Below, one piece after another: positions 33,760 to 63,276 of a DNA stretch of 64,000 bases. Numbering within the stretch: the stretch's first letter is position 1; every line of letters starts with the position of its first letter. The position numbers were made by a program, and so were the translations under genes. Source of the stretch: Candidatus Heimdallarchaeum aukensis (GTDB taxonomy: Archaea > Asgardarchaeota > Heimdallarchaeia > Heimdallarchaeales > Heimdallarchaeaceae); the NCBI GenBank assembly GCA_021513695.1, contig CP084166.1, positions 224,001 to 288,000 of the forward strand, in the 5' to 3' direction. The notes beneath the pieces are model-generated. The model saw nothing but the letters and a program-made list of their open reading frames with translations, was not told the DNA's origin and made no database searches.

Positions 33760-34050
33760 TACGTAAAGTTTTTCACACTCTGTCTTGCAAGAGAGAAAAC
33801 TAAAGGAAGTTTAATCTCTTGAACTCAACCAAGCCATACAATGCCATGAAGGGGTTGAGACAGACATCATACACGAATCGTGGGAATCATAAAGAAGAAA
33901 AGAACTAAAAACTCTTTTCTTCACTCCACGAGAGACAAAAAAGAAAGAATTACTCCTATAATAGAGAAGGAGTTAAGTTCTTTTTTGTCTACTGGGGCTG
34001 CAACCAATGGCTGAGCCCTCGGCAAACAGTGAAATGGGAAGAACTGAACC
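33760..34050 (-). ncRNA. candidate omega (re)RNA of the TnpB element
   Basis: It sits where omega RNAs are expected, overlapping the tnpB 3' end and the ~240-nt ORF-free tail. A perfect 10-bp hairpin spans 33894-33922 (gaagaaaaga/tcttttcttc). A 7-bp hairpin spans 33824-33859 (ctcaacc/ggttgag). The palindromes tcttgcaaga and tttacgtaaa lie near the distal end. Confidence 0.4.
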
Positions 34051-46425: not shown

Positions 46426-49400
46426 ATGAAAAAGAAGTTGAAATTCATGTTAATTATGTTTTTAGTTTTGCCATTATCATTAAATCATGTCTTAGCAGAA
46501 AATGTTATTGAACTATTAAATCTTCAATCAAGATATCCTATTAATTATAAAAGTAAAGATTCAGATGTTATTTCTATAAAATCAACAATTGGAAAAGACA
46601 ATGAATTATCTATCAGAAAAAAAGAGAATAGTGTAATAAGTTCGTTAAATAATGAGTTTGTTAGTCCTTATTCTCCTAAATTGAGTTATGGATTGTACAA
46701 AACTTTTACACAGATTTCATCTGTTCCTGAATCAATAAATAAAGGAGAAAATATTAGTGTAACTTCTTCAACAAAATTTGATTTAGGAACTTTATATCCT
46801 GTAGATCAAGGAACAATTTATTGGTATGATTTGAATTGTCTAGAAGAAGATCTGGGAGTAAGTACGAGTTTTGTAGAATCAAGTAAAATAGCTATCAGTT
46901 TTAATTTAACTTCTCCCTCTAACTATATGGGTGTTTATTTTGACATCTCAAATTTAGCAGATTTAACAGGAGATGTGTTAAACGTTTATCTTACTTCAGA
47001 TCTAGAAAACTATTCTACTGATTACCTGGCGAAAAGTGAACTGTCTTTTAAGTATTACAATTCTCAAGCTGGTGTATCTGGATTTTATGCTATTTATGAT
47101 AGTCCAACAACAACTCAAGTTGATAATTCCTTATTAGCAGGTGAAACATATTTTGTGGTTTTGGAAGGAGACAGTTCTTTGAGAATCGAAACATCACTTG
47201 ATTCAGAAGAATATGATGACAATAAAGTATATGTTTTTTCAGGGGGTTCTTGGGGTTTAGAACAAGGAATAGATGCAAAAATAAGAATATTCTCTGGTCA
47301 AAAAATTACTGAAAAAACTATTTCTTCTTCTAGCAATGGAGAAACTACAATAACTTATCAGTCATCTCAATCCTCTTTTAAATATCATACTTTAGTCGCT
47401 TTCTACTATGATACTTCTGGAATGTATGATCTTTCAAGTGATTCTTCAGATTTCAAAGTAATTGACAGCACAATTCCAGAGTATATTTCATTAAATAGTC
47501 CTTCTATAGCTGAATATACAGATTACATTGAGTTGAAAGCTTATGTTGAAAACTACTATCACCAAGAACTAGAAAATCAAACTGTATATTTCTATTACTC
47601 TGAAGATAACTCTTCATGGATAGAAATTGGTTCTTCCATTTCAGATAGTACAGGAGTGGCAAAGATAAATTTCTTAATCTCAAAAGCTTCTGGATACTAC
47701 TACTTTAAAGCAGTAACACAAAATTTAGAAACTTTTAACTATACTGAAACTACCAAAGAACAAGTAATTATTGAAACTCCTCTAGTTCAAACAATTTATG
47801 GAAATCTGAGTGGATCTGATACTTTAGAGACTTTTAGTTTGAAAGTACAAGTACATGATAATGATAATACTCCAATCTCTGGAGTAATGGTTTTCTTTTA
47901 TGTAGAAGGAAAAACTTTTGTTTACGACATTACTGATGAAAACGGTTACGCAAAAACGCATAGCTATTCAGTTAATTGGGCTGTTGGATACTATAACAAC
48001 AAATATTGGGTAAATATCGACTTAGATACTAATTTGTATTCATTTCCTGATACTCAATATGGTGACATTGAAGTACAAAAATCAAATTTACAAATATACA
48101 GTTTAGATAATAATACAATCAATGTCTGGATAAACGACTCCTATTTCTCTTTTGAAGTTAAAGACCCAGAAAATGATTCTGTAGCAAATATAGAATTTGA
48201 ATCAATTTTATATGATCCTTATTTTGATGAATATGTATCTTTAGGTTACGCATTTACAAATGATACAGGATATGGTAAAATTACCCTCCCAGCTTACTTT
48301 AAAGAACCAGGAAAGTATACTTTAATAATTCGCATTTCTGACCCTAACTACAATGTTATTGAAGAAAATCTGCAACTAGAATTATATGCTTCATCAAGTA
48401 TAATAGAGTGTAATTTACCTTCTTCAATCGAATATACATACAATTCTTCTTTACTAATTGAAGGGAATGTGACTGATATAAATGGTAAACCTCTAGCTAA
48501 CGCAAACATAACTGTAAAAATTACTGACCCAAGTATATCTAGTAATTGGGTATTATACATTTATACTACAGAGACAAATTCGCAAGGATACTTTTCTATG
48601 AATTTAACTCTAGATGTTGAAGTTGATCAGGAACTGGTTATAACTATTCATGTAGAAAATTATTATGGCTCTAATGGTGAGATTTCTTATTATGCTACAT
48701 CTTCACAAGAATACAATCTTCTATGTGTTAGGCGAGATGCTGAAATTTTAAATGTTCAAGACTTTATAACCCAGAATCAAGAAACAATAATAATATCTGG
48801 TTTGCTAATTGATTCTGGAGAACCTTTAAGTGGAAAAGAGATAAGAATAATTATTCAAGAAGAGAACTACTATATTATTACAGATACAGAAGGATGTTTT
48901 TACCTTAGTTACCAAGTAAATTTTGGTACAAATGTTAACTTTACAGTTGTTTTTGGGAGTGATAATCATTATAATGTTGTCAATTTAACAAGAACAATAT
49001 TTTCTTCTCCAATAAGTTTAAACATCGAAATTGAAGATGTTATTTGCAATCCAAACACTTTAATCTATTTATCAAGCTATGTCTATTCTGATTTAGGAAC
49101 AACACCTGAAAATGTGCAAGTAGAATTTTATTGGTATGATGAACAATGGATACTTTTAGGAATAGTTTTTACAAATGAATCAGGTATAGCTCAACTGAAT
49201 ATTACAAGTCCTGATAAGGTCGGAGAATTTAGCTGGAAAGCAATAGTTGTTCAAACTGAAGATTGGTTAGAATCATCTTCTAATTTGAAATTATTCCAAA
49301 TAGGTTATCACACCTCAATAAGTATGGAAGCACCAATACAAGGACAATATGGAAATGAAATTAGAATTAATTTCACAGTTACAGATCAATTTGGACAACC

Positions 49401-52400
49401 AATAGGTGTTAACATAAACTTCTATATTGATGGACTGTTGTTAAGTGAAATATCTACAGATTCAAATGGTTTTGGAAGCTATTATTGGACAATTGATTTA
49501 AGTTCTGGTAATTATTCCTTTAAAGCTGTGGTTTTAAATCAATCTATCTATATTTCTTCTTCTTGTATCCAGGAATTTGAAATAATAAAGGCTGACGTAT
49601 ATATTCAAAGTTCAGATTTGATTATGACCTGCAATGAAACAAAAACAATGGAATTTTATGTTTATTCTATTAATGGAGAGATAACAAATCTATCGTTAAA
49701 CATATCATTGTCTAACGGTTATTCAACAGTTTTAACCAGCAATAGCTCAGGTTATGCTGTTTGGAGTATTCCTATTCTCCCATCTGGTGTATACACAGTA
49801 AACGTTACCTTTAATGGAGATGATAAATATAATACGATATCTGTTAGCTATTCACTTGTTGTTAATAAGATTGAGACAAATGTTATTCTTTTTGCAGAAG
49901 ATAGTTTTTATTCTGAAAACTATAAGATCTGTGGATATGTTGAAAATTCAGAAGGACAAGGAATTGAGGGTATTGCTGTAAATCTATTAATTAATGAAAC
50001 ATTTACTCTTTCAACAACTACATTATCTGATGGAAGTTATTTATTCCTCGTTCTTCTACTTCCTGATTATTATAATATCGAGGTACAAATAGAAGGGAAT
50101 GATTATATTAATCCAAGTTCAAGAAGCACAAGTGTTTATATCTATAAACTTTCGTCTTCTTTGAACGGAAAAATTGAGTTTATAAATGACACAATGATAA
50201 TAACGGCTAATCTAACTAGTTCATCAGAACCTGTAGAAGGACAAATAATCTATTTCTATGTGAATAATTCACTAGTAGGGACTAATCTTACTGATGTATA
50301 TGGTCAAGCAAGAGTTGAATTGTTAAATATTACTCCTAGCTTATATTCTGTAAACATTGAGTATAAAGGTAATGAAATATATCAAGAATCTTCAACAAAT
50401 ATTCAAGCAGAGAAAGATAAAGAACAGACAGAAATCAAAGTTAGTGTTGAAGAAGGTGTTTATTCTCAATCTCCAACCAATATTTTTATTTCATTAAGTT
50501 CTAATGGAGAAGCTTTATCTAACCAATATATTAAGCTGAATTTTGATAACGATAGTTATTTAGCTTTAACCAATTCTTCAGGTGTAGCAGTTATTGCTTT
50601 AGATATAAACTACCTGCCTGGAAATTATAACGGAGAGATAGTCTATGAAGGAAGTGAAATATACTCATCAAATGCTGTTTCAGTGAATATAACTATTTAC
50701 AAGTCAAACTGTGTTTTCAGTTCTCTTGAAATTCAATACTTAGAAACTCTGACAATCCTAAATGGAAAAATAGAAGGTAAATATCCATTAGAAAATGAAA
50801 GCATATTCATTGAAATAAATGGGAGTAGTTACAATGTTCTTCAAACTGATGAAAATGGAGTTTTTTCTTCAGTTTTAATTTTAAATCCTGGTGAATATAC
50901 ATTAACTGCTATATTCTTAGGAAATGATTGCTATTTACCTGTAAATCAGTCAATTTACTTTTCTATCTCTAAAATAGCTTCAGGGTTGGAAATATATGAC
51001 TTTTCTAAAACTCTGGAATATGGAAAAGAAGAACTTGTAGAGTTCAAACTTTATTCATACAACAATGAATCAGGAATTGAAGGACAAATCTCTGTTATGA
51101 TTAATGGTTCATTAATAACTATTGTAGAAACAAGTAGCGATGGATTAGGTTCATTTCTACTTCCTAATGATTTATCAGTAGGGACTTATATTCTCCAGAT
51201 TTCTTTTGCTGGAGATGATCTATATTACTCTACTTCAGAATCAATAACAATCAAAGTGAAATATAAACTTGAAATTTCAATTACTGAATCAGACTTGAAG
51301 AACTATGGAATAGAAGCTTCTATCAGCGGTATTCTAAATATTCCTCTAGAAGGAATAAGTCTAACGCTAAATATTACTAACCTAAATTATTCAAATGTCG
51401 TAAAAACCAACAGCGATGGAGAATTCATTTTTGTTATTCCAAGCAATATTCCATCAGGAAATATGACAATTGTATTGTTTATTGAAAAAACTGAAACTAT
51501 TTTAGATACAAACTATTCGTTTGAGACAACAAGGGGTTATGGAGAATATTCTGTTTTATTTACTAACCTTGAATTTGATATAAATAGCACAGAGAGTATC
51601 ACTGGTAAAATATCTTATAATGGTGATTACAGTTCTTCAGGAAAGATATATATCAAAATAAACGATACTATTGTTCTTACACAGGAATTCAACGAACTAG
51701 GTGAATTTAACATAGCTCATTCAATATTTGATCTACTTCCTGGAGATTACAACATTAAATTCTATTTTGAGTTTGATAACGAGAATTTTAGAAGCCAAGA
51801 ATTGACAATTAAAATAGAAATATTAAAACTTGAATTAAATCTGGAAGTCACTACTAGCAGTTCTGAAATTCAAGTCTATGATGTTTTATCATTAAATATA
51901 AGCGCAAATTATCCATTAGATAAGGATAGAATAAAACTATTAGTTAACAATACTGAATATTCGAATAATGAGTTTGAAATTATAGAATATGAGAATTATC
52001 TTACCGCAAACATAGTAATTGAATTAGCAGGTAATATAAACATAACTGTGATATTTGAAGAAAATGACTTCTTTTATAGAAGCGAAAAAAGTTTAATTAT
52101 TCAAGTTCTTAAAAGAGATGTTGGCTTTGAATATAATCGAGATACATTTTATTACAATTCCAGCATTCCATTGATAATAGAACTTATTTCATTTAAGAAT
52201 GAGACAGATATTGAATTTACAGTTCTTCTGGGAGAAAGAGCCGAAACAGGAGTAAAGACAATAAGTTTCATACTCACTAATATTTTCATTGGAGACTATC
52301 AAGTGTATATGTTGTTTGAAGGAAATTCTTATTACAACTCTTTTAACTCTTCATTTGTTATCCATATTATTCCTCAACCAACAAAGATAGTTTTCAAAGA

Positions 52401-52791
52401 AAATAAATCAGATTATCTTCTAACATTACTTTTACTAGATTCAGAGAATAGAAGTATTTCTAATGCAGAAACAACGATATTCTTCTTAGATACTACTCAT
52501 CTGGTTTTAGAAAATCGTACTCTCTTCACTGATGCAAATGGTTATTTGTATTTAGATGTCAGTACATTTCCTGAAAAAACAACAATGATAAGGATTGTTT
52601 TTGATGGAGATGTGGTATATGAGGATACGATGATCGATATAGAAGTTGAAGATATTGTCAAAACTTATACCCAGAATGTAAAAATCCCGAAAATGAATAT
52701 GATACATATGCTAATCTCTATTCCTGTAAGCATTATAGGATTAATAGTATATTCAAAAAAAGACATTTTCAAGAATCTTAAAAAACATTAG
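46426..52791 (+). CDS. giant repetitive cell-surface protein (signal peptide, ~20 beta-sandwich modules, C-terminal TM anchor)
   Basis: N-terminal signal MKKKLKFMLIMFLVLPLSLNHVLA. At least 15 recurrences of the T[DN]xxG[YFVI] module motif (TDENGYAKT, TNDTGYGKI, TNSQGYFSM, TDSNGFGSY, TDANGYLYL and others). Dozens of NxS/T sequons. C-terminal anchor MIHMLISIPVSIIGLIVYSKK. Confidence 0.8.
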   Translation: MKKKLKFMLIMFLVLPLSLNHVLAENVIELLNLQSRYPINYKSKDSDVISIKSTIGKDNELSIRKKENSVISSLNNEFVSPYSPKLSYGLYKTFTQISSVPESINKGENISVTSSTKFDLGTLYPVDQGTIYWYDLNCLEEDLGVSTSFVESSKIAISFNLTSPSNYMGVYFDISNLADLTGDVLNVYLTSDLENYSTDYLAKSELSFKYYNSQAGVSGFYAIYDSPTTTQVDNSLLAGETYFVVLEGDSSLRIETSLDSEEYDDNKVYVFSGGSWGLEQGIDAKIRIFSGQKITEKTISSSSNGETTITYQSSQSSFKYHTLVAFYYDTSGMYDLSSDSSDFKVIDSTIPEYISLNSPSIAEYTDYIELKAYVENYYHQELENQTVYFYYSEDNSSWIEIGSSISDSTGVAKINFLISKASGYYYFKAVTQNLETFNYTETTKEQVIIETPLVQTIYGNLSGSDTLETFSLKVQVHDNDNTPISGVMVFFYVEGKTFVYDITDENGYAKTHSYSVNWAVGYYNNKYWVNIDLDTNLYSFPDTQYGDIEVQKSNLQIYSLDNNTINVWINDSYFSFEVKDPENDSVANIEFESILYDPYFDEYVSLGYAFTNDTGYGKITLPAYFKEPGKYTLIIRISDPNYNVIEENLQLELYASSSIIECNLPSSIEYTYNSSLLIEGNVTDINGKPLANANITVKITDPSISSNWVLYIYTTETNSQGYFSMNLTLDVEVDQELVITIHVENYYGSNGEISYYATSSQEYNLLCVRRDAEILNVQDFITQNQETIIISGLLIDSGEPLSGKEIRIIIQEENYYIITDTEGCFYLSYQVNFGTNVNFTVVFGSDNHYNVVNLTRTIFSSPISLNIEIEDVICNPNTLIYLSSYVYSDLGTTPENVQVEFYWYDEQWILLGIVFTNESGIAQLNITSPDKVGEFSWKAIVVQTEDWLESSSNLKLFQIGYHTSISMEAPIQGQYGNEIRINFTVTDQFGQPIGVNINFYIDGLLLSEISTDSNGFGSYYWTIDLSSGNYSFKAVVLNQSIYISSSCIQEFEIIKADVYIQSSDLIMTCNETKTMEFYVYSINGEITNLSLNISLSNGYSTVLTSNSSGYAVWSIPILPSGVYTVNVTFNGDDKYNTISVSYSLVVNKIETNVILFAEDSFYSENYKICGYVENSEGQGIEGIAVNLLINETFTLSTTTLSDGSYLFLVLLLPDYYNIEVQIEGNDYINPSSRSTSVYIYKLSSSLNGKIEFINDTMIITANLTSSSEPVEGQIIYFYVNNSLVGTNLTDVYGQARVELLNITPSLYSVNIEYKGNEIYQESSTNIQAEKDKEQTEIKVSVEEGVYSQSPTNIFISLSSNGEALSNQYIKLNFDNDSYLALTNSSGVAVIALDINYLPGNYNGEIVYEGSEIYSSNAVSVNITIYKSNCVFSSLEIQYLETLTILNGKIEGKYPLENESIFIEINGSSYNVLQTDENGVFSSVLILNPGEYTLTAIFLGNDCYLPVNQSIYFSISKIASGLEIYDFSKTLEYGKEELVEFKLYSYNNESGIEGQISVMINGSLITIVETSSDGLGSFLLPNDLSVGTYILQISFAGDDLYYSTSESITIKVKYKLEISITESDLKNYGIEASISGILNIPLEGISLTLNITNLNYSNVVKTNSDGEFIFVIPSNIPSGNMTIVLFIEKTETILDTNYSFETTRGYGEYSVLFTNLEFDINSTESITGKISYNGDYSSSGKIYIKINDTIVLTQEFNELGEFNIAHSIFDLLPGDYNIKFYFEFDNENFRSQELTIKIEILKLELNLEVTTSSSEIQVYDVLSLNISANYPLDKDRIKLLVNNTEYSNNEFEIIEYENYLTANIVIELAGNINITVIFEENDFFYRSEKSLIIQVLKRDVGFEYNRDTFYYNSSIPLIIELISFKNETDIEFTVLLGERAETGVKTISFILTNIFIGDYQVYMLFEGNSYYNSFNSSFVIHIIPQPTKIVFKENKSDYLLTLLLLDSENRSISNAETTIFFLDTTHLVLENRTLFTDANGYLYLDVSTFPEKTTMIRIVFDGDVVYEDTMIDIEVEDIVKTYTQNVKIPKMNMIHMLISIPVSIIGLIVYSKKDIFKNLKKH

Positions 52792-52848: not shown

Positions 52849-54264
52849 ATGAACAACAAAGAGAAAAATCAAAAACTATCCTTTTTAAAAAATCAATATA
52901 GTAGACTACTCGATAAATTATCAAAGTCAATTGTAGTAAAAATCAGAGAACAAGGAAAACTCCCTTTCTTTTTAGTAGTTTTAATTTGGATAGTTTTCTG
53001 GGGAAGCTCCTTTTACTTTATTACAGTCTTTATGCCTGTTAATTTGTTGTGGTTAAGAGTATTCTTACCTGTATTTATTTCTCTTATTGTTGTTAATGCT
53101 TCAACAGAATTAGGAAAAAAGGTAGTGGGTTATCATAATGAAAAAGAAGAGAAAGTTGAGAAAGAAAGTTCTTCTTCTCTCTTAAGTGAAGAAAAGGACA
53201 TTTCTACAAAAGAAGGTTATTCTTTGAAATCAACTTTCATTCTTCGTGATAAGAAAGGGAAAAAAATTTTTCTTATTAATAAAGGCAAAATTATTCCTGT
53301 TTTTTTGGTTAGCATATTGAGTACAGGAAACAAAGAAAAAGGATACACATTTTCTTCTTTGTTGAATTATCCTTTAAGAAATGAAATGAAAGAAATAGAA
53401 TTTTCAGTTTTAGACACAGATAAAGGAGAATATTTGCTTTTTCTAGGAAAAGAATACAAAACTAAAAACAAAAATTATACAGAATTATTAAAGGAAAATG
53501 AACAGTTTTTCTCAAAAATAGAGATTATAGTTGCTGAATTAAAGAGAGACAATAATTTAGAATTAGAAGCTGTTGAAGATTCAATACTTAATGAGCTTTT
53601 TCCTCTTTATTCTGAAGTATTATGTTGTAAAAATGAAGACACTAACAAAAAGGAACAAAAAATAGAAGAAAAAAATCATCTACAGTTAAAGAGTGAAAAT
53701 AATAATCTAAATAATGCAAATAATGGAAAAGAATATAATCAAAATGGTGAGAGCAGTAATAGATTCAGACCTTTTTCAGTTAAAACTGAACTTACACCAT
53801 ACCAATTAACGAAGGTTGCAGAAAAAAAAGAACTACTATTATCTGAACTCACTTATTCTTTTGATAATTTCATTGATATGTCTAAAGTATTTTATAAAAA
53901 AGCTCTTGAACATCAATTGAACGCAAAGTTTCCTATCTCCGAGGATAATTTTCTTAAACTTATACAACTCTTTGTAGAAAAGAATAAGTATGAATTCTTT
54001 TATCCAAGTTTCTTTAAACTAGAGAAGTATGAATCTTTCAAAGTCTTTGAAACTCCTAGTTCAGAAGAGATAGAAGAGTTTTCTGAAGAACTAGTAAAAG
54101 AATGTATGTTTACTAATTTAGATACTGAAGTAAAGAAAGAGTTGCATTCCTTCCTTACTCAAAAAATCAAAAATAGGAAGCATAGGCAAGAAGTAAAACC
54201 TGTAGGAATTAAAGTATCTTCTACAATTCCTAGGCCATCAGTAAAATCTTTATCAGAATCTTGA
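52849..54264 (+). CDS. membrane-anchored hypothetical protein
   Basis: 471 aa. Two to three N-terminal TM segments, then a soluble region with a low-complexity N/K/E linker. Confidence 0.5.
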   Translation: MNNKEKNQKLSFLKNQYSRLLDKLSKSIVVKIREQGKLPFFLVVLIWIVFWGSSFYFITVFMPVNLLWLRVFLPVFISLIVVNASTELGKKVVGYHNEKEEKVEKESSSSLLSEEKDISTKEGYSLKSTFILRDKKGKKIFLINKGKIIPVFLVSILSTGNKEKGYTFSSLLNYPLRNEMKEIEFSVLDTDKGEYLLFLGKEYKTKNKNYTELLKENEQFFSKIEIIVAELKRDNNLELEAVEDSILNELFPLYSEVLCCKNEDTNKKEQKIEEKNHLQLKSENNNLNNANNGKEYNQNGESSNRFRPFSVKTELTPYQLTKVAEKKELLLSELTYSFDNFIDMSKVFYKKALEHQLNAKFPISEDNFLKLIQLFVEKNKYEFFYPSFFKLEKYESFKVFETPSSEEIEEFSEELVKECMFTNLDTEVKKELHSFLTQKIKNRKHRQEVKPVGIKVSSTIPRPSVKSLSES

Positions 54265-54273
54265 GGAGATTGA

Positions 54274-54909
54274 ATGATTGAAATAGTTTTTTTGAATTTC
54301 TTGAATCTCTTTGTTAAAATATGGCTATCAGCTCTTTTAATTAATATTCTACTTTCCACTCTCTTAAAACCAATTTATAAACATCTGTTGGCAATAGGCT
54401 TGGTTTTCAATTTACCAATTAAGCGACTATTTTATTGGATCTATAGAGTACCCATTGAGAATATAGATTGGGAAAACGGTCTAATTAGAACAAAGAAAGT
54501 GAATAATATGGATTGTCTAGCAACTACAGTTGTGATCATGCCTGTATTTATTTTAAGCTACTTATCTAGTTGGTTATTCTATTTTGCAGGTAAAATCTAT
54601 CCCTATGGTTACAAGTTCTTTGGAATTGTTCTTTATATTGTCGCTTCGTTAAGTCTAGCTTTCAGTATTCCTAACTTTGAGGAATTGAAATTGTTTAATA
54701 ACATTAATCTTCATTCCTCTTTGGTCTATTTACTAAAATGGGTATTTGTAGTTATAGTTGTCTTTTCAATAGTTGAGTTTACTTCTATCTCTCTTGATGT
54801 ATTAACTACAGTGATATTAGTTCTTTTAGCTACTCCATTTTATAGTTATAAAGAAGATGAAGAAAATGTAGAGAATATTAAGAAAATTATTGGTGATCCA
54901 TTTGCATAA
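54274..54909 (+). CDS. polytopic membrane protein (paralog of 45683..46423)
   Basis: 211 aa. LAFSIPNFEELKLF pairs with FAFFSIPDVQDLMLPF in 45683..46423. Confidence 0.5.
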   Translation: MIEIVFLNFLNLFVKIWLSALLINILLSTLLKPIYKHLLAIGLVFNLPIKRLFYWIYRVPIENIDWENGLIRTKKVNNMDCLATTVVIMPVFILSYLSSWLFYFAGKIYPYGYKFFGIVLYIVASLSLAFSIPNFEELKLFNNINLHSSLVYLLKWVFVVIVVFSIVEFTSISLDVLTTVILVLLATPFYSYKEDEENVENIKKIIGDPFA

Positions 54910-55525
54910 ATGGACTCTTTCCAAAAATGAGCGAATGATACATCTTTATGGTCCCCCAGCAAGTGGTAAGACTACTTTAGCAATTCAATTATCTAGAAAA
55001 GTCTTTCCTCGCTCAACAATTTATTTCATTACTTCGCATAGAAACGCAATTACAAAAAGAGCAAAACAGATACTAAACAAGAATTATCTTAAAGAATTTT
55101 ATTTAATTAAAGTTTCTAGTTTAGATGATTTATTTGAAAAAATTCAATCTATTAATAGCTTAGGAAAAACAATAGGATTGATTGTAATAGATTATATCTC
55201 TGATTTTGTTAGAGGGAAGCTATACAAGGAAGAAGTAAAAAACAAGGTAAGGAAGATATTAGAAAAACTTTTTATTTTCTCCTCACAAAAAGATTGTTTA
55301 GTTGTGATAGTCAATAGTTTTTCAATAAAAAATGAAGCTCCTTTGAATTCTTTAGTTGAAAGTTTTTGTGACATGTCAGTTTATTTGTCGATTAAAGATG
55401 ACAAATACAATTTGGAATCAAATGGTAAAAATATAAAAAGAACTTTTGTAGTCGATGAAAAAATTATTTCCAGCTTCGTTATTGATGAAAAAGGAATTAA
55501 AGATTTAATTATTGTGTCTGAATAA
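54890..55525 (+). CDS. RadB/KaiC-like RecA-superfamily P-loop ATPase
   Basis: Walker A HLYGPPASGKTTLAIQLS, Walker B GLIVIDYISDFVRG, then LVVIVNSFS and a C-terminal FVIDEKGIKDL, giving a RadB-like layout. The start is ambiguous (TTG 54890, GTG 54893 or ATG 54935). Confidence 0.65.
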   Translation: MVIHLHKWTLSKNERMIHLYGPPASGKTTLAIQLSRKVFPRSTIYFITSHRNAITKRAKQILNKNYLKEFYLIKVSSLDDLFEKIQSINSLGKTIGLIVIDYISDFVRGKLYKEEVKNKVRKILEKLFIFSSQKDCLVVIVNSFSIKNEAPLNSLVESFCDMSVYLSIKDDKYNLESNGKNIKRTFVVDEKIISSFVIDEKGIKDLIIVSE

Positions 55526-55585: not shown

Positions 55586-56056
55586 ATGTATTCAGAGCAA
55601 GAAGTGATAAGAAAAATAACAGAAACTTGGAAATTTGAAAATAAAGTATGCGTGAAAGAACTACAAATTCCTTTAGTAGGCAAAAATATCAATTATCCTT
55701 TTTTAGAAAATAGAAAAAGCATTCGTATAGATCTTGCTTGCTATGATATTGTATCTGATAAAATTATTTTTGTTGAAGCAGAAAATGGTCTGTGGCTTCC
55801 TCATCCCCAAATTTATAGACCTTTTTGTGATATGTTATATGTTGCTACTCCCTATGATGATAGTTACTATAGAGAAAAGCAACTTGAGTGGGCAAAAAAT
55901 GAAGGAATAGGAGTAATTGAAGTTCTTTATGATGGTTACATTATAGAAACATTAAAACCTGTAGTTTTTCCTGATTCGATGGATATCTCTTTAAGAGAAG
56001 AAGTTCTAGCACATTTTGTTAAGAAACTCAAAAAAAACGAAAAAATAGCTGATTGA
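55586..56056 (+). CDS. MmcB-like / PD-(D/E)xK nuclease-fold protein, tentative
   Basis: IRIDLACYD..KIIFVEAENG is a D..ExK-like core with K replaced by E. It is followed by YRPFCDMLYVATPYD and EGIGVIEV, resembling the MmcB-family Y..CD.fYfa.P..G pattern. Confidence 0.4.
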   Translation: MYSEQEVIRKITETWKFENKVCVKELQIPLVGKNINYPFLENRKSIRIDLACYDIVSDKIIFVEAENGLWLPHPQIYRPFCDMLYVATPYDDSYYREKQLEWAKNEGIGVIEVLYDGYIIETLKPVVFPDSMDISLREEVLAHFVKKLKKNEKIAD

Positions 56057-56113: not shown

Positions 56114-59100
56114 ATGAAAGGAACTGCTATTGCCACATCAAAATTTCAAGGTAAGAATCAAGCTATTTATTCAATAAAAAAAGATGATAAAATTACTTTA
56201 TACTGTGCGTTCATTATTAGACCAAAAAAGAAAGAAGTTGAGAAAAAAGGAGATTATGAAAAAAAAACTACTATTTTTGTAACAGATACTAAAAGTCTTT
56301 TTTTGCCTTTGAATATTGATTCAAGTCTAAAAATTATGCTTCACCGCTTTATTTTACCAGCTAAACTCAGAAAAATAACAAAAGAAAAAAATAAAGGAAT
56401 AGAAATCTCTAGAAAAAAAGAAGAGAGTGAAGAAATCAATGTATTTTTAACTTATTATATCTTTAAAATCTCAAAAACTTATGATCTTACCGTAAATTTA
56501 CTTTCAATGAATACATTGTTAGAAGATTTTGCAGAAACTGTTAGATCTAATTTAAAAGAGTTGTTCTTATCTTTAGGAGCAGTAGGAAGAATAACAGGAG
56601 AATTATTAGAAAAAATCGTTTGTTTGAATGTTACAGATAAATCGTCTATTATCAATAACAACTCTAAAGAATTTTTAACAGAGCTTGCAAAAGAGTTTGT
56701 TGTAATAGAAAAAAGTACAGAAATCCAATCAATTTTCCTCCCTGGTCCTTCCGTAGATTTAAGAACTTCGAGTGTATTTTTTACTCCTTCAAGAATAGAA
56801 TCTGCTTTTCCTTTAGGGAAGACGGAAGAAGGTTTTCTTGTAGGCTTTCCTCCCTCTTTCTCTTACCCCATACTTTTGTGTGGAGATAAGAAAATAAGAA
56901 AAATTTTACTCTCCAAAATTTTAGAAAATTCATCTGCTAAATTTATTGTTTTAGGAGAGATAAATGGAAAAATAAGAAAAAAGAATGTAAAGTTAAGTTT
57001 AGGAGAGAATTTTACATTTAATATCTTATCTCCTATGTTTATGCGAAAAGTACTGTCAGAGAGAGATTATTGGCGTTATCTGAGTGATTTTCTACTCATA
57101 GTTAAAGAAGTAACCGAAGTTAGAAATGAAAATCTTTTACAAATTCCTGAAATAATTAAATTTTATATCCAAGAATATGAACAAAGTGAAGATAACCTCT
57201 TTACTCCTTTTGATTATAGTTCTGTAACTATTGACGATATTTATACAATGCTTACATCTGAACCTGGAGGATTAATAATTTCAGATTATCAATTAGCTGC
57301 TTTACGTTCTGTTTTTACTGATATTAGCGATAATTCAGTTAGCACGGTAACTAATATTAATGGAAAACATGGAATTGAAGCATTAATTGACCAGAACCAT
57401 ATAATTGACTTCAGTAAACATTCAATAAAAGTTAGAAAAATATTCGTTTATTCGTTATTGCTTCAACTTTATTTATATTTTCAAACAGATTTAATTTCTA
57501 AACCAGTAATAGTAGTAATCGACAATGCAGAATTATTCTTTTCAACTGAAGTTGAAAGAACTTTTATTTCAAAACTACTCACACTATTTGAATCTCTACC
57601 TGTAAATATTATCCTTTCAACAAGTTTTCCTTCTCATCTAGCTCTTACTGCTTTTGATTTAACAAATAATAGAATTATAGCTAATCTTCGCTCTGCTAAG
57701 TGTGCAAAATTAATTGCTGATTCACATAATTTATTAAAAGAACAGAAAGAAATGCTTCTTCGCCTTCCACAAAATTCCTTTCTTATCCTCCGGGAAGATT
57801 TTTTTGAGAAACCCTTTCTTGCTTACTTACAAAGAGAAGATCTAAATTTGTTTTCTAATTCCAGACGATTCAATCTTGAAAAATTGGATTCATTAGTAGA
57901 TATTGGAAACACTAGTGCAATTTTAGAAGATGAAAATAGAGTAATTGAACCTATTTTTGATGAAGAAGATCTTCTTCCTATTATGATTGATATTTTAAGA
58001 AAACTTGATTCTAAAGCTCAAAGGGGAATCAACTCTGAATCATTGGTTAATCTCTTTCCTGACTATCCTGCAATTGAAGTTAAGAATGCTGTAAAATTAT
58101 TAGAGTTAAGAGGATTGATTTTTCGTGAGACAGTTGATAAAGAAGGAAGAAAAGGTGAATTTTGGACAAAAATAAGTCCTTTAGGCAAGAAAATGTTATC
58201 TAGATTCGAGATTCAATCCATAGCAAAGAATGATAAAATTGACAAAGTTGAACGAAAAGAAGAGGAGATAACTATTTTAAAAAATGAACAAAGTCATAAT
58301 GAAAAAATATCTAACAAAAAGCAAAACAATGGAAAAAAAGATTCTTTAGAACAATCAGAAGTTATTAACCATTTAGAGAAGGTACAAAACAATTTAAAAA
58401 ATAGTAGGAATCCTGTTGATGCTTTTTTGGATTCAATAATGAAAGTTGAAAAAAAAGCCATACAAATATTCTCAAGAAAAGGTAAAAAGATAGGTAAAAT
58501 TTCAGATTTTTACATTTTGTTACATGACTTTATCCAAAAGGCAAAAGCTGTAGATTTCAATATTCAATCAGAGCTAAAAGAGTTTGAGCAGTACTTAAAC
58601 TCACTTTATGATGTTTTAGAAGATAGTGAATCCCTTGAACAAATGTCAGATGAAATATTAGAAAGAGTAATGAGAAAAGGATTAAATCTCTTAGATCAGA
58701 TACATGTTAAATGTTCTTTTGATAAGATCGAAAGAAACTCCAGTAATCTTCCAGAACTTCTTGAAAAAGAATTAAATTCTGATAAATGGGAAAACATTGA
58801 AACTAAATTTGATGATGAAGTAGTGAGTGATATTAAGCATAATATAAAGAATGACATACAATCAATGTTCTTAACTGATTCTGAAAAACAAGTTTTTCAG
58901 GTACTTAATCATGCATTAGAAGCTCCTAAAGACAGTTTTATTGATTATGCTAGAAAAGCTATAGCAAGACTAATGAAAATAAAAATGCAGTTTTACCCTA
59001 ATCTCGATGATAAAGAGTTTATTATTATTTTTGTAAGATTCTTTGAAAAAAATCAATTACCAATACCGTTTAATGAATCGATTCTGATGGTTGATGAACT

Positions 59101-59269
59101 AGCTTTTCTTAGCACAATTTCCAAACAAAAGAAAAAGGAAATAATCGCGAAAATAATAGAGGAAAATAACTCATTTGTGTTTGATTTAGATGATAAAAGT
59201 AAAGATAGTCTTGTTATTCAGTTAAAGGAAATTGTCTCAAAAAGTCTAAGAAAGTTAAAAGAGGAATAA
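56114..59269 (+). CDS. large HerA/FtsK-superfamily-like protein with degenerate Walker motifs plus a winged-helix-like segment
   Basis: PLGKTEEGFLVGF..YPILLCGDKKIRKILLSKIL occupies the P-loop position. PVIVVIDNAELFF occupies the Walker B position. It continues with NIILSTSFPS. Later comes VKNAVKLLELRGLIFRETVDKEGRKGEFWTKISPLGKKML. 1051 aa. Confidence 0.45.
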   Translation: MKGTAIATSKFQGKNQAIYSIKKDDKITLYCAFIIRPKKKEVEKKGDYEKKTTIFVTDTKSLFLPLNIDSSLKIMLHRFILPAKLRKITKEKNKGIEISRKKEESEEINVFLTYYIFKISKTYDLTVNLLSMNTLLEDFAETVRSNLKELFLSLGAVGRITGELLEKIVCLNVTDKSSIINNNSKEFLTELAKEFVVIEKSTEIQSIFLPGPSVDLRTSSVFFTPSRIESAFPLGKTEEGFLVGFPPSFSYPILLCGDKKIRKILLSKILENSSAKFIVLGEINGKIRKKNVKLSLGENFTFNILSPMFMRKVLSERDYWRYLSDFLLIVKEVTEVRNENLLQIPEIIKFYIQEYEQSEDNLFTPFDYSSVTIDDIYTMLTSEPGGLIISDYQLAALRSVFTDISDNSVSTVTNINGKHGIEALIDQNHIIDFSKHSIKVRKIFVYSLLLQLYLYFQTDLISKPVIVVIDNAELFFSTEVERTFISKLLTLFESLPVNIILSTSFPSHLALTAFDLTNNRIIANLRSAKCAKLIADSHNLLKEQKEMLLRLPQNSFLILREDFFEKPFLAYLQREDLNLFSNSRRFNLEKLDSLVDIGNTSAILEDENRVIEPIFDEEDLLPIMIDILRKLDSKAQRGINSESLVNLFPDYPAIEVKNAVKLLELRGLIFRETVDKEGRKGEFWTKISPLGKKMLSRFEIQSIAKNDKIDKVERKEEEITILKNEQSHNEKISNKKQNNGKKDSLEQSEVINHLEKVQNNLKNSRNPVDAFLDSIMKVEKKAIQIFSRKGKKIGKISDFYILLHDFIQKAKAVDFNIQSELKEFEQYLNSLYDVLEDSESLEQMSDEILERVMRKGLNLLDQIHVKCSFDKIERNSSNLPELLEKELNSDKWENIETKFDDEVVSDIKHNIKNDIQSMFLTDSEKQVFQVLNHALEAPKDSFIDYARKAIARLMKIKMQFYPNLDDKEFIIIFVRFFEKNQLPIPFNESILMVDELAFLSTISKQKKKEIIAKIIEENNSFVFDLDDKSKDSLVIQLKEIVSKSLRKLKEE

Positions 59270-59281
59270 AAAGGGAGAAGG

Positions 59282-61393
59282 ATGAATGAAATAGAGTTAA
59301 GTTCTGAAAAACTAGAGGATTTTCAACAGAGGTGTATGGAAACTTTTTTGAAAAAAGAAAATTGCCTTATTTCTTCTCCTTCTTCTACAGGAAAAACATT
59401 TCTAGTTAAAGAATATATTAAAAATTACATTATAGAAAACTACTCAACTATTCTACGATCTCCTAAAAAAATGAAAATAGTGCTACTGTTTCCTTATAAG
59501 GCGATTGCTATACAAGAATTTAACTCACTAGTCGATTTTGCAGAAAAAAAGATGATCAAGATATTCTTATCTGTTGGAGGAGTAAAGTTAAACAAAGAAA
59601 CAGTAATGGAAGCAAATATTATTGTTGGAACATTTGAAAAGTTTTACTTCATTTTGAATCTATTCCCTGAAATTCAAAAGAACTTGAAAATATTGGTAAT
59701 AGATGAATTTCACTTTTTAGGTTATAATAGGGGAAAAGTGATAGAAAGTATATTATTAAAAGTTAAGGAAAACAAAAATACACAGATTATTCTTTTATCC
59801 TCATCAATCGGGAATCCTGAGGAAATAGCAAGTTGGTTAGGCTTTAAACTTTTGCAATATAATAAACGCTTAGTACCGTTGGAATTGAATATAAAAAAAA
59901 TTGAAAAATCTCTTATACAAGAAATATTTTCAATCAGCAAAGCTAACTTACCTGCTATTATATTTCAAAACTCAAGATCTAAAGTAGAAAAATTAGCTCT
60001 AGAATTAGCAAAAAAAAGAAAAGATGTATTGATAAAGAATTTCGAAGAGTTTTTCGTAAATTCTCCTAACCTTATTTCAATAATGGAAGAAGTTTATTTC
60101 CCTGATAAACTAAAAGAAGCAATTTCAAAGAGAGTGGCTTATCATCATGCAGGTTTAAGTGATATAGTTAGAGTATTTGTAGAACAATTATTTCTTTCTG
60201 GAGAGATTGATTACTTGATTTCTACTTCCACTCTGTCAGCTGGAATAAATCTTCCAGCTAAAATGTCAATTTTTGTTATAGAAAGAAAACAATCTGAAGT
60301 TGATAATAATTTAATTTTTCAAATTCTGGGGAGAGCAGGAAGATTTGAGTTTCAAGATAAAGGAATAGGAATTCTATTAATAAGACCAGCTTATTTGAAA
60401 GAATATAGCGACAAACTTTTTGACCAAAGAGGAAAACCTATTTACAGTAGTTTAAAAAGCCAATTTTTTGACTATGATTTTTTGATCAAATATTTTCTGG
60501 TAGAAATCGCATTTTCTAAGGAACCTGTTTCAGTAAGGATAGAAGATTTATTAAAAAAAATCGAGAATTCACTATGGTTTTATAGTAACAAAGAAATATT
60601 CTTAGTATTTAACTCTAAAGATGTTCATTATGCACTTTTTTCTCAAGCCTACTCAAGTTTGGATTATGAAGAGATAGTTGATTATTATGAGAAATTAGAT
60701 GAAGCTTTTGGTATAAAGCCTTCTAATTTACAACTCGTTTCTAAGCAAGAAAAAGGCAAAGGTAACTTCTCTTTTATAATTTTAGAGAATGAAAAAAAAT
60801 ACAAAGTAATTATGAATTTAGAAAGAAGACAATGTTCTTGTCAGTCAAAGTACAGCAATTATCTTTGTAGACATCAGCGTTTTTTGATTAAGATGTATCC
60901 TTTCATGAAAGAATATTGGTTAAATAAATATGGAATAATCGATTGGCTGATCGATAATGGTTTTTTAGTTAGAAGCAAAGGAATGAAGGTTAATCCTACT
61001 TTATTGGGAAAAATTTCTGCAAAATTTTTTATTCACCCTTATTCTTTTCTTCATTTTCTTCATTTATTAATTATCTATCCTAACATTAACTTTTCCTCTT
61101 TTTTTACTAAAGTTGTTCTATTCGATGAACAAATAAAGAGAGATATTAAGTCAAATGAACTAACAAATATACAAGCTTTGCAAATATTTCAACTATTAGT
61201 AAAACAAGAACCATTAACAATATGCTCAAAATACAATATTTCAGACAGTCTATTAGAAAATTGGCAAGAAATATATACCAAGTACAAGAGTTTATTTTTT
61301 GAATTAAAGAAACTTATGGGAAAAAATCTAGCAAAAGGGAACTTTACAAATAATTTCCTCACGAAAAATGAAGTTGAAGAAACAATTCGTTAA
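59282..61393 (+). CDS. Ski2/Hel308-like DExH helicase with SWIM-type zinc finger
   Basis: Motif I SSPSSTGKTFLV, II VIDEFHFLG, III LSSSIGN, then HHAGL, STSTLSAGINLPA and VI QILGRAGR. The SWIM finger reads RRQCSCQSKYSNYLCRHQ (CxC..CxH). Confidence 0.8.
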   Translation: MNEIELSSEKLEDFQQRCMETFLKKENCLISSPSSTGKTFLVKEYIKNYIIENYSTILRSPKKMKIVLLFPYKAIAIQEFNSLVDFAEKKMIKIFLSVGGVKLNKETVMEANIIVGTFEKFYFILNLFPEIQKNLKILVIDEFHFLGYNRGKVIESILLKVKENKNTQIILLSSSIGNPEEIASWLGFKLLQYNKRLVPLELNIKKIEKSLIQEIFSISKANLPAIIFQNSRSKVEKLALELAKKRKDVLIKNFEEFFVNSPNLISIMEEVYFPDKLKEAISKRVAYHHAGLSDIVRVFVEQLFLSGEIDYLISTSTLSAGINLPAKMSIFVIERKQSEVDNNLIFQILGRAGRFEFQDKGIGILLIRPAYLKEYSDKLFDQRGKPIYSSLKSQFFDYDFLIKYFLVEIAFSKEPVSVRIEDLLKKIENSLWFYSNKEIFLVFNSKDVHYALFSQAYSSLDYEEIVDYYEKLDEAFGIKPSNLQLVSKQEKGKGNFSFIILENEKKYKVIMNLERRQCSCQSKYSNYLCRHQRFLIKMYPFMKEYWLNKYGIIDWLIDNGFLVRSKGMKVNPTLLGKISAKFFIHPYSFLHFLHLLIIYPNINFSSFFTKVVLFDEQIKRDIKSNELTNIQALQIFQLLVKQEPLTICSKYNISDSLLENWQEIYTKYKSLFFELKKLMGKNLAKGNFTNNFLTKNEVEETIR

Positions 61394-61431: not shown

Positions 61432-63276
61432 TTGAAGCTGATGAAAAGAGATAATTTCCTACTTACATTTTTAATTTTAATTATAGTATGTACAATTTTA
61501 CTTATTCCGCTTTATTTTACTGAAGCTCACTATTTAGAACAAGAGGAAGAAAAAAAGCAAATAAAAAATGAGCTTCAATCTACTATCCTTATTCCTCATG
61601 ATATTGTCTTTAATTTCACAGATAAACTTTCTAAATACACTTACTCTTTTGTTCAGAATCTTACATTAAGTGGATTATATGGTTTAGAAATTCTGTTTAA
61701 AACTGGTGGGAGTTTAGCTTTAAGTGATACCTTAAAAGTAAAGATAGTTATGGAGGATAGAATAAATATCAGCTTCACAATAGATAAATTATTTCAAGAC
61801 TCCAATATTCATTCTTTAACAAAAAGTCTTTATTGTGAAAATATTGGAGAAGAAGCAAAGATAACAATATATTTTGAAGGACAATGTTTCATTGGAAAAG
61901 AGGGTAATCTAACTCTTTTCAAAACTATTAATCTTTATTCTTATGATATTCTATCTTTAAAAACAGAAAAAATTATTAGTCCTGACGTTATCCCTCATTC
62001 TATCTCTTTTTCAGGGAATTCTTTCTCCAAAAAGACTTTTTCTGTAAAATCATTTTTTAATGTAGAAAATACAAACATCACAAAAATTAAGTTAAATTTT
62101 ACATTTAATACAAATGATTTTGTTTCACTAGAAAGAAAAATAACTTTTCAGATAGGTTCAAACCTTACAGAAAAGGATTTTAGTTCAGGATTAAACACAA
62201 TTTTATTGTCATTAGATTGTGGAAGTGATCTAAATATTTTGAATATCTCTTTTACAGTAGGTTATAGCTCTGATATCATACATTTAGAGGATTTTAGTTT
62301 AAGTATTGAAGTAGAGAAAGAAGAAGAAACAAGTAAAGAAAGAGAAATTCTTGAATTTAAAGAATGGGAAGGAGATAAGATAGATTTAACTTTTGACATC
62401 TCAATTCTAAAAAATGAGCAGAGTTCTAAGGAGTTAATAATAAACTTAAATCTTAGTTGTGGTTTTGAAGGTGCAACTGTAACTCCTTACATTGAATTTA
62501 GAATTATTTCTGGAATATATACTATTTATACAGGAAAAGTAATGAGTTATGAACAAAGCGAAGAAGAGTTAATAAAAATAAATACTTATACCTACACTTA
62601 CAATAAACCTCTATTAGTTAACTTTTACGCTAAATTAGAAAATAGTGGGAAAGGACAGATCTTTATTTACAATTCTTCTAATCTTACTGCTTCAAAAATC
62701 CCACAAATGTCTTCTAAAGGTTTATTTAGGGAAGTAGAATCAGAGAAAAACGTCTACACTCCTCAACTAGGTGCAGTCATCCTAAATTACTACGATGTCT
62801 TTTTCAATGATTATTCATTAACAATAGATTATGTTTTTAATTTGACTTTTACCCTTTTCACAGATTATGATGAAGTTTTTGATAGAATAAATGTTGGAAT
62901 AACAATAGGCGTAAATACTTCAATAAATAAGATTTTTAGTAAACCTGGTAAGATCTCAATTACTGAAGACGTTAAAATCTATCAAGGATATAACGAGGTT
63001 AAAATCAAGTTAACAATTTATGGTTCAGGAACCTATGTCTCTCTCAGAAATATAACTTATAGACTTAATCCGATTAAAGATTTTTCTTTTCAAGATGAAA
63101 ATCAAACAATTAGTTCGGTAAATATTCCCTTGATAAAACCCCCTTATACAATAAGTTTAGGAATAAGTTCGATTTTAGGTCAATGGGTAATTGGAGGAGT
63201 ATTCGCTAGAGTGTTTAACAGTAGCAAAAAGAAAAATAAACTCTCTAAAAATATGAAATATAAGTTAGAGTTTTAA
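61432..63276 (+). CDS. beta-rich surface protein with N- and C-terminal hydrophobic anchors
   Basis: N-terminal TM/signal FLLTFLILIIVCTILLIPLYF, many NxS/T sequons, and a C-terminal ISLGISSILGQWVIGGVFARVF followed by a basic tail. Confidence 0.6.
   Translation: MKLMKRDNFLLTFLILIIVCTILLIPLYFTEAHYLEQEEEKKQIKNELQSTILIPHDIVFNFTDKLSKYTYSFVQNLTLSGLYGLEILFKTGGSLALSDTLKVKIVMEDRINISFTIDKLFQDSNIHSLTKSLYCENIGEEAKITIYFEGQCFIGKEGNLTLFKTINLYSYDILSLKTEKIISPDVIPHSISFSGNSFSKKTFSVKSFFNVENTNITKIKLNFTFNTNDFVSLERKITFQIGSNLTEKDFSSGLNTILLSLDCGSDLNILNISFTVGYSSDIIHLEDFSLSIEVEKEEETSKEREILEFKEWEGDKIDLTFDISILKNEQSSKELIINLNLSCGFEGATVTPYIEFRIISGIYTIYTGKVMSYEQSEEELIKINTYTYTYNKPLLVNFYAKLENSGKGQIFIYNSSNLTASKIPQMSSKGLFREVESEKNVYTPQLGAVILNYYDVFFNDYSLTIDYVFNLTFTLFTDYDEVFDRINVGITIGVNTSINKIFSKPGKISITEDVKIYQGYNEVKIKLTIYGSGTYVSLRNITYRLNPIKDFSFQDENQTISSVNIPLIKPPYTISLGISSILGQWVIGGVFARVFNSSKKKNKLSKNMKYKLEF

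Follow-up and report, generated by a model that had tools for sequence, protein, structure and literature searches.

A 64,000-nucleotide stretch of the genome of Candidatus Heimdallarchaeum aukensis (the window; GenBank assembly GCA_021513695.1, contig CP084166.1, positions 224,001 to 288,000) encodes a superfamily 2 (SF2) helicase, termed F, that belongs to the Hel308 lineage of Ski2-like enzymes and carries a SWIM-type zinc knuckle inserted within its winged-helix (WH) domain. F is the last gene of a six-gene operon, A to F, which is vertically inherited and normally located beside radA. Among its partners in the operon, C is a RadB-like ATPase with a Rad51 fold, D adopts a PD-(D/E)xK nuclease fold and E is a large protein with a degenerate P-loop domain. 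We propose that the operon specifies a module that uses recombination to repair stalled or crosslinked replication forks, in which the SWIM knuckle would act as a partner- or DNA-docking insert, an interpretation whose chances we judge to be about even. Coordinates in the window refer to the forward (+) strand unless otherwise stated.

F is a Hel308-lineage helicase

The F gene (59282..61393) encodes a protein of 703 residues, 100% identical to a protein of the 3.08-Mb H. aukensis genome. Its ATG lies 12 nucleotides past the stop codon of the preceding gene and has the motif GGGAGAAGG upstream. A Pfam scan identified DEAD (residues 14-180) and Helicase_C (residues 274-355) domains in the motor core (59309..60421), which comprises RecA1 (residues 10-195) and RecA2 (residues 196-380). 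The core displays the sequences SSPSSTGKT (motif I), DEFH (II), SSS (III), YHHAGL (IVa) and QILGRAGR (VI), and an alignment of 18 homologs sharing 37-100% identity shows little or no variation in motifs I, II, III, IVa, V and VI (QxxGRAGR). Invariant columns include D141-E-F-H144, S173-S174, H288-H-A-G-L292, T315-S-T317 and Q347..G350-R-A-G-R354. Motif IVa of Hel308/Hjm enzymes, defined as (F/Y)HHAGL (PMC10484726), is present in F with a nearly invariant Y287, and the protein has the organization of a Ski2-like SF2 enzyme, in which RecA1 and RecA2 with motifs I-VI are followed by a ring of WH and ratchet domains. The full-length relatives of F number 18, every one labelled Heimdall or Asgard, after which there is a sharp drop to matches confined to the core (E ∼1e-25).

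The AlphaFold model of F (predicted local distance difference test (pLDDT) 84, predicted template modelling score 0.84) was aligned by Foldseek over its full length to Hjm/Hel308, the POLQ helicase-like domain and Brr2, with template modelling scores of 0.58-0.65. Fold comparison gave values of 33.4 for the POLQ helicase-like domain, 31.7 for Brr2, 30.8 for Ski2, 28.9 for Mtr4, 24.1 for Hjm (28% identity) and 22.2 for Sso Hel308, with 498-534 of the 703 residues aligned in each case, while HamB was outside the top 60 matches. The best relatives by sequence are Hjm/Hel308, Brr2 and ASCC3; in phmmer searches the best single-domain match was Pyrococcus Hjm (148 bits), and the highest summed scores were those of ASCC3 and Brr2. 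Profile alignment to canonical Hel308 by hhalign was highly significant (E 4e-61), but F scored 131-161 bits against the NCBIfam Hel308 equivalogs (NF040935, NF001308, NF002251 and NF002654), about seven-fold under their cut-offs of 887-1216. As Hjm provides the best domain match while the equivalog scores are far below threshold, F is a member of the Hel308 lineage and not an ordinary ortholog. F is predicted to be a catalytically competent 3′-to-5′ helicase, specific to Heimdallarchaeia, for which DNA is the probable substrate.

The zinc knuckle is inserted within the winged-helix domain

The zinc-ligand signature of F, CxCx8CxH, comprises C518, C520, C529 and H531 and is encoded at 60833..60874 (CSCQSKYSNYLCRH). 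The four ligands are invariant in 18 of 18 homologs, as are S525, N526, Q532 and R533, and every one of the 24 distinct genomic copies in which the C-terminal half of the protein is present has the motif C[ST]C...SN[FY]xC[KR]HQR[FY]. When the F protein was shuffled 20,000 times with its composition preserved, a CxCx6-25CxH pattern arose once, and within F conservation is highest in the knuckle segment (residues 516-540; 0.77, compared with 0.66 for RecA1). These data show that the SWIM signature is real and not a chance occurrence. The Pfam SWIM model (PF04434) matched residues 507-536 weakly, at 16.3 bits against a cut-off of 19.6 (E 0.007), and detected 10 of the 18 family members at E ≤0.1, the best at 1.7e-4. 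In the AlphaFold 2 model the insert contains a β-sheet (residues 483-512), the knuckle and a helix (residues 530-538), predicted with a pLDDT of 82-93, and the knuckle is predicted to coordinate Zn2+.

The position of the insert was defined by profile alignments. The hhalign alignment to canonical Hel308 ended at F residue ∼465 (Hel308 ∼473), and NCBIfam PRK00254 aligned residues 21-465 of F to model positions 35-477. As the WH domain (domain 3) of Hjm spans residues 400-492 (PMC2636818), the alignment stops inside this domain. When residues 446-540 were removed from the F profile, hhalign continued co-linearly over 553 columns as far as position 636 of the 715 in Hel308, and the recognition helix and wing of the WH domain (IIDWLIDNGFLV..PTLLGKISAKFFIHP) were now aligned, as was the ratchet. 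Domain 5, which in Hjm comprises residues 643-720, has a helix-hairpin-helix (HhH)/helix-loop-helix fold and fulfils single-stranded DNA-binding and regulatory roles (PMC2636818), was not found in F: the alignment stops at position 636, and none of the 18 members gave an HHH match in Pfam. The SWIM module is therefore inserted within the WH domain, the ratchet is shortened and domain 5 is absent. In the resulting anatomy the N-terminal helices of the WH domain (residues 390-445; 60449..60616) precede the SWIM-containing insertion (residues 446-540; 60617..60901), which consists, according to the secondary structure of the model, of two helices, a three-stranded β-sheet, the zinc knuckle and a further helix, ∼95 residues in total. 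The remainder of the WH domain (recognition helix and wing, residues 541-590) and the shortened ratchet-like helical domain (residues 591-680) follow at 60902..61321, and the last ∼20 residues (684-703) form a disordered tail with a pLDDT below 50. A search of 1.84 billion representatives with residues 390-703 identified nine relatives, all of them from the F family, and none outside it. The arch domain of Mtr4 and Ski2 is likewise inserted in the WH domain, according to a survey of archaeal Ski2 proteins (PMC10946056).

The original prediction, made from the letters of the window, had described a Ski2/Hel308-type helicase with intact SF2 motifs and a SWIM-type zinc knuckle that is not associated with canonical Hel308 and should have its four ligands conserved in homologs, and on each of these points the alignments agree with it. 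An ordinary Hel308 ortholog with conserved synteny would have contradicted this prediction. The synteny is indeed conserved, as described below, but the equivalog scores are not those of an ordinary ortholog.

F terminates a vertically inherited operon beside radA

Loci were gathered through identical-protein look-ups and a scan of species-representative genomes. The scan returned 22 loci from Heimdallarchaeota, and its sole match elsewhere was a core-only one in Bathyarchaeota with 24% identity. The F-type helicase is confined to Heimdall-group Asgard archaea, where each genome has a single locus, with the exception of one metagenome-assembled genome (MAG). In ∼20 species, in which the helicase shares 38-44% identity and the outer flanks of the cluster differ, the usual gene order is G-A-B-C-D-E-F-[0-8 kb]-RadA-Giant, where G and Giant denote a membrane-anchored and a surface protein, respectively. 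The window and H. endolithica display a rotated arrangement in which RadA comes first, followed by Giant-A-B-C-D-E-F-G, while a divergent lineage (L002/L021) retains A-F without Giant, G and RadA. The A-F block is tightly packed on the same strand, with intergenic gaps or overlaps of 12-60 nucleotides. The GC content of the cluster matches that of its surroundings (∼29% in the window), and no integrase or tRNA gene was found at its borders. A-F is a six-gene operon that is vertically inherited and normally located beside radA. A scan for bacterial-type promoters and terminators returned counts equal to the shuffled expectation; the consensus is bacterial and uninformative for an archaeon.

Aloposons, the mobile elements described in Heimdallarchaeum, contain tandem genes for proteins of 3,000-6,000 residues, a tRNA integration site and an upstream ParA/MinD ATPase (PMC8813620). 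An Aloposon or other mobile element was rejected as the identity of the cluster, which contains a single gene for a 2121-residue protein, without tandem giant genes, in a 64-kb window devoid of tRNA genes. The absence of significant matches to the ParA/MinD-type family in any neighbour scanned also argues against an Aloposon.

Several features of individual loci were recorded. In the metagenomic contigs L005 (9553-11689) and L028 (9950-12155) the helicase gene is split into two open reading frames, which could reflect a frameshift, an assembly error or a pseudogene. Two contigs of MAG SRP214966_co4_346 (L015 and L029) each carry a helicase-RadA-Giant segment, the helicases displaying 40% and 36% identity to F, and here a duplication or a mixed bin is possible. 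Just upstream of the block in the window are genes for a TnpB/Cas12f-like protein (33989-35443, − strand) and an rve-family integrase/transposase (37854-38792), which may be related to the rotated gene order of the genus Heimdallarchaeum.

DNA-enzyme partners of the helicase

C (54890..55525; 211 residues) is a RadB-like, core-only ATPase of the RecA/Rad51 fold with intact Walker A and B motifs. It matched NCBIfam radB (TIGR02237) at 53.6 bits (E 2.5e-14), which is under the cut-off of 172, while its PDB profile match was RadB (2cvf; E 5e-11), and hhalign related it to the core of the RadA encoded in the window (E 1e-6). Residues G21, P23, K27-T28 and I100-D101 are invariant. In most Heimdall loci (for example L001 5355-6374 and L004 1940-2923) C has an additional low-complexity N-terminal extension of ∼110-130 residues, which is absent in the window, H. 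endolithica and L005. RadA itself (41578..42669; 363 residues) is a canonical recombinase with HhH and Rad51 core domains (Pfam Rad51, E 2e-51). It is 54-57% identical to the RadA proteins encoded beside F in 16 loci, and in most other genomes its gene lies directly downstream of F.

D (55586..56056; 156 residues) shows the highest conservation of any gene in the block and has a family of 64 members. The model (pLDDT 90.7) displays an αβββαβ nuclease core, and in 44 aligned sequences E25, R47-I-D49, E64-x-E66, H73-P, Y77 and Q99 are invariant. The closest fold is that of the DUF1052/MmcB structure 3dnx, with 13% identity; Pfam searches with five members and a comparison of the 44-sequence profile with PDB sequences revealed no sequence link to MmcB/DUF1052. 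The Pfam entry for this group, PF06319, now bears the name MmcB-like family. 3dnx is the structure of a DUF1052/PF06319 protein, and DUF1052 is found mostly in alphaproteobacteria (PMC3424549). MmcB, a PD-(D/E)xK endonuclease under SOS control, provides protection from mitomycin C and cisplatin (PMC9578287).

E (56114..59269; 1051 residues) combines a degenerate P-loop core resembling HerA and mad8 with a winged helix of the RPA32C type and a C-terminal region that is long and helical. The PADLOC model of mad8 matched the Walker-B half of the P-loop domain in five of six members (best E 9e-9) and HerA in one of six, while the Pfam winged-helix family RPA_C was detected in four of six. A profile search of E against PDB sequences gave no match, and a literature search on mad8 yielded nothing informative. 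The Walker A (AGDKK[TIN], residues 254-262) and Walker B (IDDAE, or IDNAE in the window; residues 469-473) regions depart from the canonical GxxGxGK[ST] and hhhhDE, and E may be an ancient pseudo-ATPase scaffold. Its homologs are found in Heimdallarchaeaceae only, with distant E-like proteins in loci L032 and L033; the Walker A region of the latter reads GGLQKQR. The nuclease-fold neighbour at 55586..56056 and the HerA-like gene that intervenes between it and the helicase had both been proposed from the sequence at the outset, and the fold of D and the P-loop remnant of E now substantiate them.

A peripheral and tentative member of the cluster, encoded just upstream of radA (39411..41219; 602 residues), resembles Hef helicases. 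It matched the Hef of locus L034 (blastp E 2e-9) and the Hef-like protein of L032 (2e-8), and had no Pfam match. With motifs I and II that look degenerate (LPENF.. and LHADKS), the protein may be an inactivated derivative of Hef.

Membrane and surface proteins of the block

A (52849..54264; 471 residues), the first gene of the A-F core, encodes a protein with two to three N-terminal transmembrane helices. B (54274..54909; 211 residues) specifies a polytopic membrane protein with five to six transmembrane segments and overlaps C by 20 nucleotides; it is conserved in the cluster and has distant homologs in L032 and L034. G (61432..63276; 614 residues), which in other genomes is usually upstream of A, is a membrane-anchored and probably extracellular protein with 16 N-x-S/T sites. 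Giant (46426..52791; 2121 residues) is a surface protein with immunoglobulin-like repeats (Pfam Big_1, Big_3_5 and CarboxypepD_reg), a signal peptide and a C-terminal transmembrane helix. A Pfam scan of A, B, G, E and D returned nothing useful.

In most Heimdallarchaeaceae loci radA is followed within 1-44 nucleotides by a Giant gene whose product (∼2100 residues) has a signal peptide, a C-terminal transmembrane helix and many N-x-S/T sites (for example L001 12257-19796, L004 9029-16587 and L006 4961-12456), while in the window three small genes lie between the two. To find the main recombinase consistently paired with a giant extracellular protein is unusual. Upstream of Giant, the window encodes a 246-residue protein with four transmembrane segments (45683-46423). 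Homologs of this protein (E 1e-6 to 2e-9) flank the D homolog in distant Asgard contigs (L031 9070-9888 and L034 2558-3367), which suggests that it is also a member of the module.

Distant versions of the module in other Asgard lineages

Distant homologs of D are located in rearranged forms of the block. In a Kariarchaeaceae genome (L032; GCA_054388035.1, 2978-15163) B-like, D and E-like genes occur with genes for XPD-like and Hef-like helicases, and the SWIM helicase is absent from the locus. The XPD-like gene lies between a degenerate C-like gene and D, while the Hef-like helicase, a 557-residue protein and the 1207-residue E-like protein are transcribed divergently. XPD-like genes are also found near the cluster in L005 and L007. 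Locus L034 contains Giant, a B-like gene, a Rad51-fold C, a true Hef, an E-like gene and D. In L033 (GCA_976558965.1) the order is D, an E-like gene (hhalign E 2e-14), an F-like helicase, a true Hef with DEAD, Helicase_C, ERCC4 and HhH domains, and XPD. The B/C/D/E module always travels with fork-repair or crosslink-repair helicases, and these loci indicate that it is older than the SWIM helicase of Heimdallarchaeaceae.

The F-like helicase of L033 (8992-11274) shares 25% identity with F and aligns to the F family profile across the insert (E 7e-30). At the SWIM position it has a zinc knuckle of the form CxxCx6CxHxxA, after which there is a match to PF21280 (archaeal helicase domain 4, Hel308), while motifs I (GKD), II (DEVQ) and VI have decayed. 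As the knuckle is kept despite the decayed motor, the SWIM insert probably has a binding or scaffold role independent of the motor, which, to judge from this sequence, it can outlive.

A possible role in the repair of stalled or crosslinked forks

The repair interpretation builds on what is observed directly, namely the sequence motifs, fold, insertion site, conservation and synteny of F and the folds of its partners, and is favoured by its coherence with related systems. Loss of Hel308/HELQ causes sensitivity to crosslinkers (PMC10484726; PMC8755542), HELQ cooperates with the BCDX2 RAD51 paralogs (PMC3778836, PMC13125761), Hel308/Hjm binds Hjc and PINA (PMC10484726), and Rad51 paralogs are bound by the SWIM proteins of Shu complexes (PMC5727457, PMC6316741), with the SWIM domain making the contact (PMC5727457). 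In the proposed module F would act on DNA with 3′-to-5′ polarity, unwinding or remodelling a fork or D-loop, while the MmcB-like D would incise or bind branched or damaged DNA. The RadB-like C and RadA would form or regulate a recombinase filament, for which E, with its degenerate P-loop and winged helix, could provide a scaffold. The SWIM insert, if it binds zinc as predicted, would be a docking surface that joins the helicase physically either to branched DNA or to a partner protein, for which RadA and the RadB-like C are the most plausible candidates, and could thereby take over the regulation formerly provided by domain 5. The insert might bind a Rad51 paralog directly; the F gene is linked to those of C and RadA.

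At stalled or crosslinked forks in eukaryotes HELQ cooperates with RAD51 paralogs, as do Shu2/SWS1, and FANCM also participates. Hef is a homolog of FANCM/XPF, and Heimdallarchaeia are the archaea closest to eukaryotes. A bolder form of the repair interpretation, which we regard as doubtful, is that the operon is an archaeal counterpart, and possibly a forerunner, of the HELQ-RAD51-paralog/Shu/FANCM network. The SWIM insert would then dock the RadB-like paralog, and the complex would be tethered to the membrane or coupled to Giant, linking the exchange of DNA among cells to recombinational repair.

A number of observations weigh against the repair interpretation. A model of repair alone leaves the three to four membrane or surface proteins of the block unaccounted for. 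The best PDB sequence matches of F include the RNA helicases ASCC3 and Brr2, which leaves some room for an RNA substrate. D lacks the canonical Lys of its fold, having D..ExE (D49..E64-x-E66) in place of D..ExK, and may be non-catalytic, while the P-loop of E is degenerate in every lineage examined. Finally, the Shu2/SWS1 motif is CxC..CxHxxA with an invariant Ala (PMC6316741), whereas in the Heimdallarchaeaceae copies of F this residue is replaced with Phe or Tyr (CxHQR[FY]).

Alternative explanations

One alternative, which is unlikely and overlaps with the repair interpretation, is that F is simply a fast-diverged Hel308 ortholog of Heimdallarchaeaceae in which the SWIM knuckle is a structural zinc clip of the WH-ratchet ring. 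The retention of the overall architecture and motif IVa is consistent with this proposal, as are the presence of a single F locus in every genome except one MAG and the reported lack of Hel308 in 18 of 42 Asgard genomes (PMC10946056). A plain ortholog would not, however, be expected to score so far below the Hel308 equivalog cut-offs, to have lost domain 5 or to be encoded within a lineage-specific operon. In addition, conservation is higher in the SWIM segment than in the motor, and the L033 relative has kept this segment despite the decay of its motor motifs.

A rather unlikely explanation, kept alive by the membrane and surface proteins that the repair interpretation does not account for, is that the block encodes a membrane-anchored machine for DNA uptake or transfer, functionally analogous to the crenarchaeal Ced/Ups systems. 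Giant and G would mediate cell contact, A and B would form a membrane conduit, E would be the remnant of a HerA/FtsK/VirB4-like translocase, and F, D, C and RadA would process and recombine the incoming DNA. Giant, G, A and B stay in a same-strand block with the DNA enzymes despite rearrangements, both in Heimdallarchaeaceae and in the distant L034, and the short gaps between RadA and Giant, the HerA/mad8-type similarity of E and the transmembrane and signal-peptide features are also in harmony with such a machine. None of the members, however, displays similarity to pilins, VirB4, VirB6 or CedA/B, a translocation motor is unlikely to have Walker A and B motifs that are degenerate in all lineages, and L002/L021 has A-F without Giant, G and RadA. 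The association with Hef and XPD, moreover, fits repair rather than transport.

It is quite improbable that F unwinds RNA in the manner of Brr2/ASCC3/Slh1/Ski2-type helicases and is engaged in RNA surveillance or ribosome rescue in a neighbourhood that is coincidental. Although ASCC3 and Brr2 have the top summed phmmer scores and the insertion in the WH domain parallels the arch of Mtr4/Ski2, per domain it is archaeal Hjm that provides the best and most identical match. No Sec63, arch or KOW domain was detected in F or the 18 members, and the deeply conserved partners (RadA, the RadB-like protein, the PD-(D/E)xK protein, Hef and XPD) are all DNA enzymes.

Least probable of all is antiviral defence by a Hachiman-like or other helicase-nuclease pair with F as HamB and D as the HamA-like effector, a logic that the original prediction had raised with a question mark and that we reject: PADLOC models of HamB (E down to 3e-34), PDC-M23B, SngC and BrxH match F, D has a PD-(D/E)xK fold and E resembles the MADS defence protein mad8, but these helicase matches are limited to the core (two separate stretches in the case of HamB), no HamA (DUF1837) match was found, F and D are not adjacent, and a six-gene operon of fixed order inherited vertically beside radA in ∼20 species, with the GC content of its surroundings, no bordering integrase or tRNA gene and relatives beside Hef/XPD in other Asgard lineages, is unlike a sporadic two-gene defence island.

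Comparison with known systems

The interest of the repair interpretation, in which function is inferred throughout, rests on the lineage and on the parallel to HELQ, Shu and FANCM in eukaryotes. Were the proposed coupling true, the operon would offer a compact prokaryotic model of how SWIM fingers and Rad51 paralogs communicate with a fork-remodelling helicase, and the insert would be a third decoration of the Ski2-like scaffold, after the arch domain and Sec63. The co-inheritance of membrane and surface proteins may be a hint of DNA exchange in Asgard archaea. Should the coupling prove not to be true, F is still a clade-specific derivative of Hel308, and the cluster a caution against designating helicase-nuclease pairs as defence systems.

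SWIM domains fused to Hel308/Ski2-like helicases were not previously known. A full-text literature search combining SWIM, Hel308 and archaea returned nothing relevant, and the F helicase is mentioned neither in the paper that describes the H. aukensis genome (PMC8813620) nor in the archaeal Ski2 survey (PMC10946056), where Hel308, ASH-Ski2 and Brr2-Ski2 groups are distinguished and SWIM is not mentioned. A fusion of SWIM to an SF2 ATPase is known from bacterial SWI2/SNF2 proteins (PMC10236294).

Among characterized enzymes F most resembles Hel308/Hjm, HELQ and the POLQ helicase-like domain, with which it shares the RecA1-RecA2-WH-ratchet organization, motifs I-VI and IVa, its best sequence and fold matches and an association with recombination proteins. 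It differs from Hel308/Hjm in the ∼95-residue SWIM insert within the WH domain, the shortened ratchet, the lack of domain 5 and the lineage-specific six-gene operon. Mtr4 and Ski2 have an arch/KOW domain and function in the context of the RNA exosome, whereas F has a small SWIM zinc finger with a β-sheet in a DNA-repair context. The archaeal D family is separated from MmcB/DUF1052 by its low identity, the lack of a Pfam or PDB profile match and its D..ExE in place of D..ExK, while E resembles the HerA/FtsK ATPases (HerA-NurA, MADS mad8) in the Walker-B half of the P-loop domain and is distinguished from them by its length of 1051 residues, degenerate Walker motifs, added RPA32C-like winged helix and long helical tail. 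Hachiman resembles the cluster in that a PD-(D/E)xK protein is combined with an SF2 helicase of the Ski2-like type.

Shu2/SWS1 is a stand-alone SWIM protein, whereas in F the SWIM knuckle is inserted in a helicase, and no homology was detected between the two beyond the knuckle. The F-like relative in L033 reads CWHVLA and thus has the Shu2-type Ala, but with CxxC instead of CxC. As the CxHxxA motif is not conserved in F, its likeness to Shu2/SWS1 is a resemblance in logic, not membership: in both cases a CxC..CxH SWIM knuckle is linked, in F genetically, to a core-only Rad51 paralog and a recombinase.

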